Shown here: in pieces, positions 30,270 to 36,761 of the stretch
Layout of the letters: the number at the start of each line of letters is the position of its first letter
Numbering within the stretch: the first letter of the stretch is position 1
Source: Sedimentisphaerales bacterium
GTDB lineage: Bacteria > Planctomycetota > Phycisphaerae > Sedimentisphaerales > SM23-30
Assembly: GCA_963666285.1 (NCBI GenBank)
Contig: OY762711.1
Length of the DNA stretch: 64,000 nt
Direction: 5' to 3' (one strand)
Notes under the pieces: generated by a model
What the model was told of the DNA's origin: nothing
What the model saw: the letters and a program-made list of their open reading frames with translations, nothing else
The model's database searches: none
Translations under genes and position numbers: made by a program

Positions 30270-30349
30270 TAGGTAATAATTAGCTGATAAACTATATATG
30301 TTAAATGCAATATAAATAATCCAGATTTATAATAATTGTTAAAACTTAA

Positions 30350-30510
30350 GGCCACCTCTAAAAATTCATTTTAAGCGAGAGATGGATCTTTTGCTTGCTG
30401 GTCTACGTCAGATAAAACCGCGAATATAGCCCAATATGCACGATTTTATCTTTCTTGCCAGCAAACAAAATACCTCACCTTCGCAATAAAAGCAATTTCC
30501 AGAGGTACCC
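30350..30510 (+). mobile_element. 161-bp palindromic MITE, copy A
   Basis: GGCCACCTCTAAAAATT...AATTTCCAGAGGTACCC, flanked by TTAA on both sides. Confidence 0.8.
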
Positions 30511-32786: not shown

Positions 32787-32826
32787 AGAAAACCTCGTTT
32801 TTGGTAACAAGAACGAGGTTTTTTCG
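32787..32826 (+). terminator. Intrinsic terminator after the GH27 gene
   Basis: GAAAACCTCGTTTTTG-GTAA-CAAGAACGAGGTTTTTT. Confidence 0.75.
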
Positions 32827-33158
32827 TTTGGATTTACAGCAAATGCGGTTTTGCAAGTTTAGTTATGTATCATTCTTGTCCAAAATAAATTTTAACAAGA
32901 GTGATTTTGGTTTTATAAGGAAGGTGATTAAGTTCCAAGTGAATGGTAACATTGAAATAAGGAGACGTACTCCTTTAATTTCACTTTGCCTGAATGATAT
33001 AAGGAATAAAAGATATATGGAATATTTCTTAGGTATTGTACTTATTCAAACGATTAGCTGTATTAAATTGTTGAAGGTGATATCTAAATATTGTAAAAAG
33101 ACTTTCGAATGGTGTATAAGTTGTTATAATATTAGGTTGATAATAGGATAATAGATAA

Positions 33159-34400
33159 GTGATAAATATAAAATTATATGACAGTAAAAATTGCCCGTGT
33201 CCTTCTGATTGCAAGCGTCGGGGAAAATGCAGAGAATGTTGTGAGTTTCATCATAATCGCGGTGACCAGACATATTGTGAATATATGGTGGCAAAAGTGA
33301 GTTCAGATAACAAAGCTCCAGCTTCGCCGGAAAGATCCATTGCGAGTGGCAGAAAGTTGCGTCTTTTGGATTACGGTCCTTGTGCAGGGTGAGTGGGGAA
33401 ATTAAATCCGACCACGTTGGCCGGAATCTTAGAACGATTACCCAAATATGAAACTGCGAACCTATTGGTTGGTATAGATACGATGGATGATGCCGGCGTA
33501 TTTCAGATTTCATCGAATATGGCATTAGTGCAAACTGTAGATTTTTTCTATCCTGTAGTTAACGATCCTCGTGCATTCGGTCGAATTGTAGCGGCCAATA
33601 GTTTATCCGATATTTGGGCGATGGGGGCGAAAGCCATGACAGCGATGAATCTGTTGTCTTACCCGGCAGGAAAGATTGATGTGTCAGGCATTGAAGAACT
33701 TCTTGCAGGTGGTAGTGAGAAGCTAACCGAGGCAAACGTTGCTTTAGTTGGTGGTCATACCATGGAACAGGAAGATCTGGTTTATGGTATGAGTGTTACA
33801 GGAGTAGTTTCTCCTGATGCAGTTGTGACCAACAGCAGGGCTCGTGTAGGAGATGTGTTGCTGTTGACCAAACCTTTGGGAACAGGTGTCTATTCAAATG
33901 CACTCAAGGAAGAAGGAATGTTGCCGGCCAATGATTATGCAGCGTTTGTCGGCAGTATGGAACGTTTAAATATGTATGCCGCGTCGATTCTGAGTAAATT
34001 CGATGTTAGTGCAATAACCGATGTGACCGGTTTTGGACTATTGGGCCATGCTTTGCCCATGGCGAGGAATGGTGGAGTTTCTTTGGTTATCGAAAGCGGA
34101 AAAGTACCACATCTTCCGGATATATTTGAATATTTATCCCGGTATTATCCTTTGGGCGTATGTAAATGTAAAGAATATGTTATGGCAGCGACAAACTGTG
34201 CATCGGCAGTTACTGATGCCGCAATGTCATTATTGTCTGAAGCCCAGACCTCAGGAGGGCTGCTGGTTGCGATTAGAGCCGGTCAAGTATCAGAAGCTGT
34301 GGCAGCGTTGCATGAATGTGGCGACCCGTATACGGCGATAATTGGGTATGTAAAGGAAGGGCCGGGTTCGCCTGACGGAGAGTACTTGATTATTACTTAG
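33159..34400 (+). CDS. selD: Selenide,water dikinase (selenophosphate synthetase), selenocysteine-containing, with N-terminal Cys-rich extension
   Basis: ORFs 33159-33392 and 33393-34400 are in frame, separated only by TGA (33390-33392) in 'RLLDYGPCAG-U-VGKL', the catalytic Cys17/Sec..Lys20 position. Also DDAGV, QTVDFF, ANSLSDIWAMG, GGHT, LTKPLGTG, DVTGFGLLGH, QTSGGLL. Confidence 0.92.
33407..33425 (+). promoter_or_regulatory. Bacterial SECIS-like hairpin downstream of selD UGA
   Basis: TCCGACCA-CGT-TGGCCGGA, with a GU-containing apical loop about 22 nt after UGA. Confidence 0.7.
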
Positions 34401-34559
34401 CATTTTAATGTGGTATCACGCAGGTATTTATTTATCTGAATGCTGACAGGTGTTTTGAATAGTGTTTATGAGGAAGGTAAAAGTTGGTGCTTCAATTTGC
34501 TATCAATCAAGTATCGGGAAGAGAATAAGGTTGTTTGGTAATACAATTGAAATTCTTAA

Positions 34560-34739
34560 GGCTACCTGAAAATTCATTTTGTGCAGCGAACAGGCACTTC
34601 GTGTGCGGCGAGAAAGATTTTGCATGCCGAACTGCGTCATATTACCCCTTAAATATCGTCAAATATGCACGCATAAAATTTCCTTGTCAGCAAACAAAAT
34701 ATCTAGATTTCGCATCAAAAGCAATTTCCAGAGGCAATT
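34560..34739 (+). mobile_element. Palindromic MITE, copy B (diverged, longer left half)
   Basis: TTAA-GGCTACCTGAAAATTCATTTTG...AATATGCACG...CCTTGTCAGCAAACAAAAT...TCGCATCAAAAGCAATTTCCAGAGG. Confidence 0.75.
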
Positions 34740-35195
34740 TAAATATTATGGATTAGTTAATTGTCAGGTTCTTTTAGTTTGAGAGCTTAATAGATTGTCT
34801 AAAAACATGTTACAATAATATGTAGATCCTGATTGTTCAGCTTGAGTAATAAATTATGTTGCAGGTTATCTTCAAGGCTATCCTGAATAAAATAATAGTG
34901 TGTTTTTTCTACCAGCAGGATCTGATGACTATGGTGATTTCGAAAAAAAAGCATCTTCTCGATTAGCTTAATTCCGACTCAAATGATACAGAAATGGTAA
35001 TGAGTTCTATGAAAATTTTAGTTTCAAGTTACTATTTTTAGACGATTTGGGTTAATACAAGCAGGACCTGAAAAGTTGAAATTATTCATTTTGTAAGTCA
35101 GAACTTCTTTATACTGCGATATTTGGGATAAATCCATATGGTATTTTTCATTATTGAAGGGAAGTACAAAATTTGAATAAAATGCAAATTTAAAC

Positions 35196-35225
35196 TTGAC
35201 CATAAAAAACGTTTAATGGTATAAT
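35196..35225 (+). promoter_or_regulatory. Near-consensus sigma70 promoter with no downstream ORF
   Basis: TTGACC-N18-TATAAT with an extended -10 TG. Confidence 0.45.
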
Positions 35226-35675
35226 CGGCTTAATAGTTATAATTGAATTTAATTTAGTTATAAACTAAGAAATAGTGCAATGTAAAAAGTAAAGATGGGA
35301 AGTGTAAGTTTTATTTATGGATAGGTCAATTGTGTAATTTGAATAACGTTATTATTTTCTAATAATGTCAGATTATTTAGTTTGGATGAATTTAATTTCC
35401 TGTACTGGCTTATTTCTCGTCTATTTATTTACTTGCTTCAAAATATATTAAACAAACAATTAAGTCAAAGTTATCTTTCTGTTCTTTGAATTTGCTTTCT
35501 TGCCTCACTTCTGCATAGATGATATTTGGCTTTTACTTGTAACAATGTTTTTAACTCAAAAGAGTTTGCTATTATATAAGTTTTAACTTTGTTTTTTGCA
35601 CATTAGATTTGTTATAGAGTTATATTTTTGGAGTTTCTGTGTTGAAGCGGAAGATATTGCCAAGATAAGGTTTAA

Positions 35676-35834
35676 GGTACCATCTGAAAATTCATTTTGA
35701 GCGACTAGTTTTTCTTTTGTTGCTGACATGTGTCACATGAAACAGTGAATATATTTCAATATGCACGATTTAATGTTTCTTGTCAGTGACCAAAATCTTA
35801 AACTAACGCATCAAAAGCAATTCCTGAGGTCACT
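35676..35834 (+). mobile_element. Palindromic MITE, copy C
   Basis: TTAA-GGTACCATCTGAAAATTCATTTTGAGCGACTAG...CGCATCAAAAGCAATTCCTGAGGTCAC-TTAA. Confidence 0.8.
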
Positions 35835-36009
35835 TAATATATAATTGTACTTTGCATATAGGAGGAATATTACAAAGAGCTTATCGCAAACTTTGGTCTC
35901 AATTATTTGTATTTCGAGAATGCCAGGGGGGTATGGTTTATGACACTGGTATGCAATGATTGCCCTTTACTTATTCATTTATACTGGATAAGTGATAGAC
36001 TTAAAAGTG

Positions 36010-36250
36010 TGTTTTATATTTTGCATTTTATACAAGGCACACTTTTGACTGTTCAACGTTTTATGCAAAGGCCAGACGTGCCAATTAAGTGAAAAATGAA
36101 TAATGATAAGTGAAAAATCAAGGTGTTTCCCGATGCTCATCGGGATTTCGCTTTGCTCAACATTGTGTCTTACGTTTCATTTAAATTGAAGGAGTTGCAG
36201 GAAGGACCGTTTAGGCGATTTTTACGACTTAAAAACTTCGAAAGTTAACT
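36010..36250 (+). repeat. Non-coding repeat R, copy 2 (contains REP-like hairpin at 36128-36145)
   Basis: CACTTTTGACTGTTCAACGTT..TGCAAAGGCCAGAC..CAATTAAGTGAA..GGTGT..ACTTAAAAACTTCGAAAGTTAAC. Confidence 0.8.
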
Positions 36251-36408
36251 AAGAACAGGTTTAAACTATACTAAAACATGCAAGTTATGCTACTAAAAAT
36301 TTAGATTTCCTGTCTGAGTACTGTGTTTAATTATTACATTATCATTAAGTGCATTTCAAGCGGTTAAATATGATTATACACTAGATTTATAAATTGTTTA
36401 TGAATGTT

Positions 36409-36642
36409 CGGTTTATGCTTTGCATCATATGCATTATGCACTTTTGACTGTTCAACGTTACATGCAAAGGCCAGACAGTGTCAATTAAGTGAATAATTTA
36501 TAGTGAAGTGAAAAATTAAGGTGTCCTGATGTACGTTGACATCAGGAATAATTCGCTATCGTCTCACGCTTTGTTTAAACATAAGTGTTGCATTAAGGCC
36601 CTCTTAGGTAATTATTGCAACTTAAAAACTGCGAAAGTTAAC
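36409..36642 (+). repeat. Non-coding repeat R, copy 3 (offset 399 bp from copy 2; contains REP-like hairpin at 36524-36547)
   Basis: GCACTTTTGACTGTTCAACGTTACATGCAAAGGCCAGAC..GCAACTTAAAAACTGCGAAAGTTAAC. Confidence 0.8.
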
Positions 36643-36761
36643 AGAATCAAAGAACAATAAATTCTTTCTTAGAAGAAAGAGAGGAGGTATTATCAGGATA
36701 ACTATTTTGTCACTTGGTTGTTATTGAATAAATTTCTAAATCTTTTGGAGGTACAGTTGCT

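Follow-up and report, generated by a model that had tools for sequence, protein, structure and literature searches.

Selenophosphate synthetases (SelD) that contain selenocysteine (Sec) have long been known, and the in vivo selenium donor of the enzyme is treated as unresolved in the accessible text of PMC13188914. Sec-type bacterial SelDs, as represented by the TIGR00476 model and the structures 2yye, 2zod and 3u0o, combine the AIRS and AIRS_C fold with a catalytic Sec or Cys that is followed by Lys at +3. The extensions of SelD described in the accessible text of PMC4561486 are Ndh, NifS, a methyltransferase and that of Plasmodium; extensions seen in single species were observed but left unreported, according to the available part of its Supplement S2. 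A CxxC/CxxU motif is present in all Ndh- and NifS-fused SelDs, the corresponding values for single-domain SelDs being <5% and ~5.6% (PMC2398784, accessible part), and, in the same partly available literature, NifS-SelD usually occurs alongside a second SelD. The N-terminal loop of SelD is flexible, and contacts have been proposed for it (bioRxiv 2020.01.28.922716, accessible part).

The gene described here lies in a stretch of 64,000 nucleotides (the window) of a 97% complete genome (G000), which, to judge by its genes, is probably that of a planctomycete. Its product has in common with the Sec-type enzymes the Asp/Asn set, the UxxK motif and a UGA with a hairpin downstream, but adds ~60 N-terminal residues with a module of six Cys and one His; the clade to which it belongs has an invariant CxxU, and a subclade swaps the PGG segment for VCKC. 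As in Ndh-SelD and NifS-SelD (accessible parts of PMC2398784 and PMC4561486), the fusion is N-terminal and CxxC/CxxU resides in the active-site loop, whereas the partner is a 40-residue Cys/His module rather than a flavo- or PLP-enzyme. Ndh and NifS enzyme domains are absent from the window protein, and its ~60-aa extension has no match in Pfam or NCBIfam. The prokaryotic SelD fusions in the accessible text of PMC4561486 are of the Cys type with one Sec exception, whereas the module-fused loci are all Sec and often represent the sole SelD. At most by analogy, the window SelD might act like the known N-terminally fused SelDs. Our literature search, which covered sources other than subscription journals, returned no description of a module-SelD fusion. 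Given that Sec-containing SelD is textbook material, what is new here is the module, together with a fused clade that is Sec throughout and the selenoproteins that are candidate clients. The key features of the gene are as follows.

33159..34400, + strand: full selD gene, 413 aa with UGA as Sec, GTG start, TAG stop
33171..33302, + strand: six-Cys/one-His N-terminal module (~residues 5-48), DUF6485-related, predicted to bind metal
33303..33350, + strand: variable linker, predicted to be disordered (pLDDT <50 at residues 51-53 and 58-66)
33381..33401, + strand: catalytic loop C75-A-G-U78-V-G-K81 with the CxxU motif, TGA at 33390-33392
33408..33424, + strand: SECIS-like hairpin with covariation, loop CGU at 33415-33417, 22 nt past the UGA
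33486..34367, + strand: SelD core, AIRS (residues 110-217) and AIRS_C (229-403), from Pfam
34158..34169, + strand: subclade motif V-C-K-C (residues 334-337), which replaces P-G-G-T of E. coli SelD

The frame (413 codons) is preceded by AGGA at 33145-33148, ahead of the GTG start, and contains one in-frame TGA, within G-P-C-A-G-U-V-G-K, so that translation with table 11 yields two ORFs, one of 77 aa and one of 335 aa. The sequence-only reading of the window had taken these two ORFs to be a single frame split by TGA at the catalytic position, which is confirmed by translation and by alignment with E. coli SelD, where U78 corresponds to Cys17 and K81 to Lys20. TGC or TGT in the reads was to count against this interpretation; contigs from three runs all have TGA, with no alternative letter, although these runs were made on two samples within a single study, are probably the data behind the assembly and give no independent support.

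The read-through protein scores 317.4 bits against TIGR00476 (cut-off 125) and 278.1 bits against the narrower PRK00943 model, below its cut-off of 299. Foldseek of the predicted structure gives 2yye (E 3.9e-33), 2zod and 3u0o as the best matches, the former two being Aquifex SelD and the last E. coli SelD. Residues D111, D128, N147, D151 and D288 are invariant and align with D51, D68, N87, D91 and the DVTG Asp of the E. coli enzyme, presumably the metal-binding residues of SelD. Judged by sequence and predicted fold, the gene belongs to the SelD family. At the PGG site, 56 loci could be scored: 32 have VCKC, 12 have VCKx, 11 have PGG and 1 has another motif. A strict coupling between the module and VCKC was considered and dropped because 11 loci with the module retain PGG.

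Bacterial SECIS elements are hairpins located just 3' of the UGA, with a G early in the apical loop. The hairpin in selD lies just downstream of the UGA, and the early G of its apical loop is invariant; the SECIS-like hairpin with a GU loop ~22 nt past the UGA that had been noticed initially thus is present, with the loop CGU, and covaries in 29 homologs. The energy of the single sequence is unremarkable (z 0.38) and Rfam has no match near the gene. Across the 29 homologs, 98.9% of the cells of the six-pair stem are paired, a value reached in 0 of 500 shuffles, and the covariation score is 0.343, whereas shuffles give 0.073 and slid pairings no more than 0.022, the latter a lenient control because the structure was drawn from the same 29 sequences. 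One covarying pair links two wobble positions; 27 of the 29 sequences pair there, with several pair types. Both partners being third codon positions, protein constraint does not explain this covariation. Three further in-frame TGAs of the genome have a comparable stem, with an N-G-N loop, 20-23 nt downstream. A hairpin rule, fitted after the fact to these four genes and hence not an independent test, matches 18 of 7236 TGA, 3 of 9235 TAA and 1 of 4260 TAG stops of the genome; five of the TGA matches have a long downstream frame, and four of these are selD and the three other hairpin-bearing genes.

The UGA matches the catalytic Cys of homologs and is kept as UGA in all 58 distinct fused loci. 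The machinery for Sec incorporation is encoded in the genome: selA and selB (both above cut-offs) and tRNA-Sec map to C1:4.438-4.447 Mb, ~2.5 Mb from the window gene. The observation that the window itself lacks selA, selB and selC accordingly holds, and the search proposed for Sec machinery and a second selD found all of these, the second selD being of the Cys type. Taken together, these sequence features make it very likely that the in-frame UGA is decoded as selenocysteine.

The N-terminal module has seven invariant residues, C12, C14, C18, C24, C27, H31 and C40, of which the six Cys are also invariant in an alignment of 124 sequences that includes free-standing relatives. The Cys pattern proposed originally is correct as to its letters, but C28, which it contains, is peculiar to the window sequence and does not belong to the conserved ligands. 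Modeled from the 124 sequences, the module consists of a Cys-rich loop and two helices (pLDDT 92) and is predicted to fold independently. With seven invariant Cys/His residues within 29 positions, the module probably binds metal; the ligands would be appropriate for a pair of Zn ions bridged by a thiolate or, alternatively, for an Fe-S cluster and a redox Cys pair. Comparisons with solved structures gave a best Z of 2.3 for VIA and no match by Foldseek or hmmsearch, all of these being weak searches with a model of 50 residues. A predicted complex of module, core dimer and zinc scored 0.00, which is no answer either way.

HMM searches with residues 1-60, the check suggested at the outset, yield no Pfam or NCBIfam match for the window peptide, and none of 59 fused N-terminal peptides matches PF20095 (DUF6485; cut-off 24 bits) at E up to 1; among 70 module relatives scanned with this model, one is above the cut-off and six are weak matches. 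Profile comparison does reveal the kinship. Aligned by hhalign with the standalone DUF6485 protein of the genome, the module scores 94% (E 1.3e-7), and its profile retrieves that protein at E 4.4e-8; in the Atlas, the neighbours of the module carry DUF6485 (0.91), with 200-213 shared features. The likeness to DUF6485 that had been suspected thus stands as remote kinship, without membership: by these comparisons, the module is remotely related to DUF6485 but falls outside the Pfam family. The Cys/His spacing of PF20095 is the same as in the fused module, but compared with the DUF6485 protein of the genome, the fused module lacks C-C-x-C and the C-terminal helix region, and whereas that protein is free-standing, the module shares its frame with SelD in 58 loci. 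No paper giving a function for DUF6485 was found in the literature. The module profile retrieves 424 representatives at 50% clustering; the best 150 of these include 18 that stop at the SelD Sec site, 104 further proteins of 40-70 aa and 7 with two module copies, and some relatives are arranged in tandem or joined to unrelated proteins (P0270). The free-standing DUF6485 gene of the genome (64 aa; C1:5034399-5034593, - strand; L078:1489-1683) is divergent from a gene of the CMD/AhpD family. More distant fused Sec-SelDs are found at L147 and L148 (G377 and G402), where the module keeps C-C-x-C like the DUF6485 protein of the genome.

The fusion is conserved, even though database proteins conceal it. 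All 60 matches to the N-terminal ORF, including that of the window itself, stop at C-[AP]-G, the site of the TGA, and the best 120 matches to the whole protein all begin past the TGA, none being a full-length fusion; in GenBank, the pieces are labeled 'hypothetical protein' and truncated SelD. In 58 distinct fetched loci, the module is in frame with SelD, and Sec and CxxU are present in all 58. This bears out the CxxU motif with Lys three residues on that had been read in the window, and the homolog check suggested at the outset gives an aligned Sec and a conserved fusion. The spacing between CPC and Sec ranges from 54 to 70 codons in homologs and reaches ~440 in P0329, the frame always being kept, and 27 of the 58 loci lack a start codon 5-20 codons ahead of Sec. 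The median dN/dS of the module, 0.18 (76 non-independent pairs among 44 sequences), indicates purifying selection. No Cys form of the fused SelD was found with the queries used, which made for a weak search for longer module proteins; the one such protein found likewise ends at the Sec site. P0329 itself is a 451-aa N-terminal piece in which the module is followed by ~400 acidic low-complexity residues up to the SelD Sec site.

A quickly computed tree covers 70 core sequences with 13 outgroup rows, duplicates, fragments and most resident-type rows being omitted. The fused forms comprise one clade in it (SH-aLRT 99), with three module-less Sec-SelDs that still have CxxU (L049, L052 and L050) nested inside. 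Homologs without the extension, which had been named as evidence against the fusion, therefore do exist, alongside the 58 distinct loci that keep it in frame. There is no module upstream of the Sec-selD of L049 and L052, and the 5' end of L050 is cut; these nested members imply that the module is dispensable in some lineages. The module-less genes with intact 5' ends are located at L049:337-1152 and L052:459-1286, and the gene ahead of each presumably resembles an acyl-CoA dehydratase activase.

The distribution of the fused form is uneven. In the phylum that contains Candidatus Aegiribacteria and G041, which we take to be Fermentibacterota (70 genomes, incomplete MAGs), SelD is matched in 63/70 genomes, the fused form, scored as a match that begins in the module and has an in-frame TGA, occurs in 61/70 and is the sole SelD type found in 53/70, as tallied by hand from the search table, with 30 loci inspected directly; selA is above the cut-off in 63/70. 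Divergent (head-to-head) pairs of selA and fused selD are found in G085, G088, G091 and G101, and ~12 genomes of this phylum encode two fused paralogs. In the order of the window, SelD is present in 61 of 251 genomes and the fused Sec form only in G000 and G015, in both as a second copy that accompanies the resident Cys-type SelD of the order; three genomes of the window's genus have no SelD match. Throughout the window's phylum, the fused form occurs in 5 of 401 genomes, and in two of the four others it is the sole SelD found. G000 and G015 are long-branched sisters in the quick tree (SH-aLRT 92). The proposal that this is a separately acquired second SelD is likely in view of these counts, and acquisition of the fused selD as an extra copy in the G000/G015 lineage appears to be the most likely scenario. 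Base composition (selD GC 0.45 and GC3 0.38; neighbours GC 0.41-0.42 and GC3 0.32-0.38) bears no clear mark of recent transfer.

The resident enzyme maps to the sel locus of the genome.

C1:4445146-4446777 of G000 (L012:15147-16778), + strand: resident Cys-type SelD, 543 aa, six-Cys module + SelD + CMD/AhpD

Like the window SelD, the resident Cys-SelD starts with a small six-Cys module, but it has Cys in place of Sec, no CxxC and a C-terminal CMD domain, and it sits in the sel locus; the two SelDs are 37% identical, and their modules show no homology (hhalign 5%). The module pattern of the resident enzyme, C-x-C-x5-C-P-C-x8-C-x-C, is present in 40 locus records of the order, some of them duplicates, and the module has no family or structure match by blastp, hhalign, Pfam or PDB. 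The C-P-C-x8-C-x-C spacing is one that we take to be ferredoxin:thioredoxin reductase-like; a shortened domain of this kind found no support with blastp, hhalign (2%), Pfam or PDB. Ahead of the resident selD lies an NMT1/SsuA-like ABC transporter, and tRNA-Sec comes directly after selD.

The window selD stands alone between a gene for an NPCBM/alpha-galactosidase protein and a LamG gene, so the original description of a solitary selD in a glycan locus is accurate. The neighbours are glycoside hydrolase, NPCBM and LamG genes, and the flanking terminator corresponds to a terminator-like hairpin.

32787..32824, + strand: intrinsic-terminator-like hairpin that closes the upstream alpha-galactosidase unit
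34550..36650, no strand assigned: intergenic stretch with two repeat families, context outside the gene

The 2.36 kb downstream of the gene contain copies of one repeat family at ~34550-34750 and 35650-35850 and of the other at 36000-36250 and 36400-36650. Both families have tens of copies across the whole genome, the first with a further window copy at 30346-30505, and are therefore uninformative on transfer and no mark of insertion. Promoter-like sites number 21, against 17.6 by chance, that is, chance level. Around 54 fused loci, no selenium-related neighbour is conserved, the neighbours being lineage-specific (clustered, mostly unnamed), and no selenium operon shared by these loci was found. 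A search of the genome for fdhA likewise gave no match.

The three further genes with an in-frame TGA and hairpin have signal-peptide-like starts and are candidate selenoprotein genes.

C1:4460979 of G000 (L081:9250-12159), - strand: candidate secreted or membrane-anchored selenoprotein of ~960 aa, F5/8 + LamG, with Y-G-U-G-G-T-C and a conserved hairpin
C1:5547769 of G000 (L082:6757-8079), - strand: candidate secreted selenoprotein with FG-GAP repeats, a G-U-C motif and a hairpin
C1:4496149 of G000 (L083:5784-7019), + strand: candidate secreted selenoprotein of 412 aa, with Y-M-U-N-C and no Pfam or NCBIfam match

The LamG/F5-8 candidate has relatives in 24 of 121 genomes of the order, nearly all with one in-frame TGA, which occupies the same site in all 11 relatives' loci inspected. 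For the FG-GAP candidate, there is a 72% identical TGA-bearing relative in G015 and a distant TGA-bearing one in G005; the close form is confined to G000 and G015 among the 121 order genomes (E 1e-40). The Y-M-U-N candidate has one in-frame TGA, at whatever position, in each of six matching genomes (five besides G000). Table 1 of PMC13188914, in its accessible form, lists none of the domain types of the three candidates. It is plausible that these candidate secreted proteins are clients of the window SelD, in which case the presence of two SelDs calls for no new selenium pathway.

Which role the module plays is a question of weighing several readings. We would give roughly even chances to a 413-residue selenophosphate synthetase that feeds Sec synthesis, with a tethered metal-binding module aiding selenium loading or reduction at CxxU. 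Very probably, SelB would read the hairpin, and Sec78 and Lys81 would convert selenide and ATP to selenophosphate for SelA. More tentatively, and by analogy, the flexible linker could let the module reach the N-terminal loop, where together with Cys75 it might capture selenium or re-reduce a Cys75-Sec78 selenenylsulfide; a relay or re-reduction function of this kind has been proposed for the domains fused to SelD in Ndh-SelD and NifS-SelD. We favour such a loading or re-reduction role because the module is tethered by the active-site loop, CxxU is invariant and the CxxC/CxxU pattern in the accessible part of PMC2398784 points the same way. In G000, the resident Cys-type SelD would start selenophosphate synthesis Sec-free, and the Sec copy would add capacity once selenium is present: the resident enzyme being made without Sec, the Sec-dependent copy would presumably be on only when selenium is available. 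As counterpoints, the nested module-less SelDs have kept CxxU, the relatives of the module are mostly free-standing, which suits a generic metal-binding module equally well, and the resident SelD bears a different Cys-rich module and has no CxxC. It is somewhat unlikely that the module serves as a zinc knot of structural purpose or as an element for docking, involved in stability, dimer formation or SelA contact, outside selenium chemistry. Its seven invariant ligands, its confident compact predicted fold and its mobile, mostly free-standing occurrence would fit such an element, but the adjacent CxxU is invariant and is the motif of redox and selenium-donor fusions (PMC2398784, accessible part), and the extra core Cys (VCKC/VCK) occur in module-bearing proteins and in none of the three module-less ones, even if 11 module-bearing proteins are also without them. 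A sensor, or a two-product switch at the UGA that would yield the free 77-aa metal-binding protein when selenium is scarce and the full enzyme when it is plentiful, seems quite unlikely. The 77-aa product would be the whole module, predicted to fold independently and resembling its free-standing relatives, and a switch would be in keeping with Sec in 58/58 loci, the lack of any Cys version or full-length fusion among the best 120 matches and the stop of the single longer match at the Sec site as well; Sec-to-Cys swaps are documented for SelD in the accessible text of PMC13188914, yet the Cys form is unseen here. Catalytic need, however, explains the strict Sec equally well, and where the fused form is the sole SelD, strong termination would starve Sec synthesis.

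The sequence-only reading had envisaged a second SelD that serves an unknown selenium use. The location of the second copy far from the sel locus in G000 and G015, the ~12 genomes with two fused paralogs and the confinement of the close FG-GAP candidate to G000 and G015 would agree with a separate pathway of this kind. Nevertheless, searches of the 97% complete genome for selU, yqeB and senB gave no match; the fused form is the sole SelD type found in 53 of the 70 genomes of a selA-rich phylum and adjoins selA in four; G000 and G015 are related, and a TGA-bearing FG-GAP gene occurs in G005, where fused SelD was not found. With other Sec candidates present in the genome as well, the postulated use is not upheld, and we consider a separate pathway highly improbable. 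From the fusion in 61/70 genomes of the Aegiribacteria phylum, its status as the sole type found in 53 and its presence as a second copy in 2 of 251 order genomes, the window SelD most likely is an ordinary supplier of selenophosphate for Sec synthesis that was acquired as an extra copy. Two separate genes, for a 77-aa Cys-rich peptide and a SelD that starts near the UGA, or a pseudogene, are barely credible. GenBank annotates the homologs in this manner, and in-frame TTG codons at L67 and L70 leave a short form possible for the window gene alone, but a start past the UGA would drop Sec78, the frame is kept over varied linkers in 58/58 loci, 27 of which offer no usable internal start, and the TGA and hairpin are conserved across phyla. 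Also unlikely is a broader scheme in which an anaerobe SelD clade has its own metal-thiolate module that catches or reduces selenium for CxxU while the UGA doubles as a selenium-dependent switch. If true, DUF6485-like proteins would gain their first function and SelD a built-in route for its selenium, which here would serve secreted selenoprotein families absent from the current catalogue.

The position of the small, separable module ahead of the catalytic loop, combined with the existence of natural module-less kin, offers a direct test of how SelD gets its selenium. The fusion also opens a way into a family of Cys/His microproteins that is so far uncharacterised, with its 424 representatives. 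Gene callers cut off the small Cys module in front of SelD, and the main SelD of one bacterial phylum is consequently annotated as a hypothetical peptide and a truncated enzyme without the catalytic residue.

Two further observations concern the surroundings of fused and resident genes. At L044:826-6239, a run of genes for an FtrB-like protein, an NMT1/SaoX-like ABC transporter and one unnamed protein ends with a fused Sec-selD, the transporter being of the same kind as the one that precedes the resident selD in G000. Elsewhere in that genome, nine tRNA genes form a cluster on one strand (C1:5226832-5229866, - strand), possibly on a mobile element.
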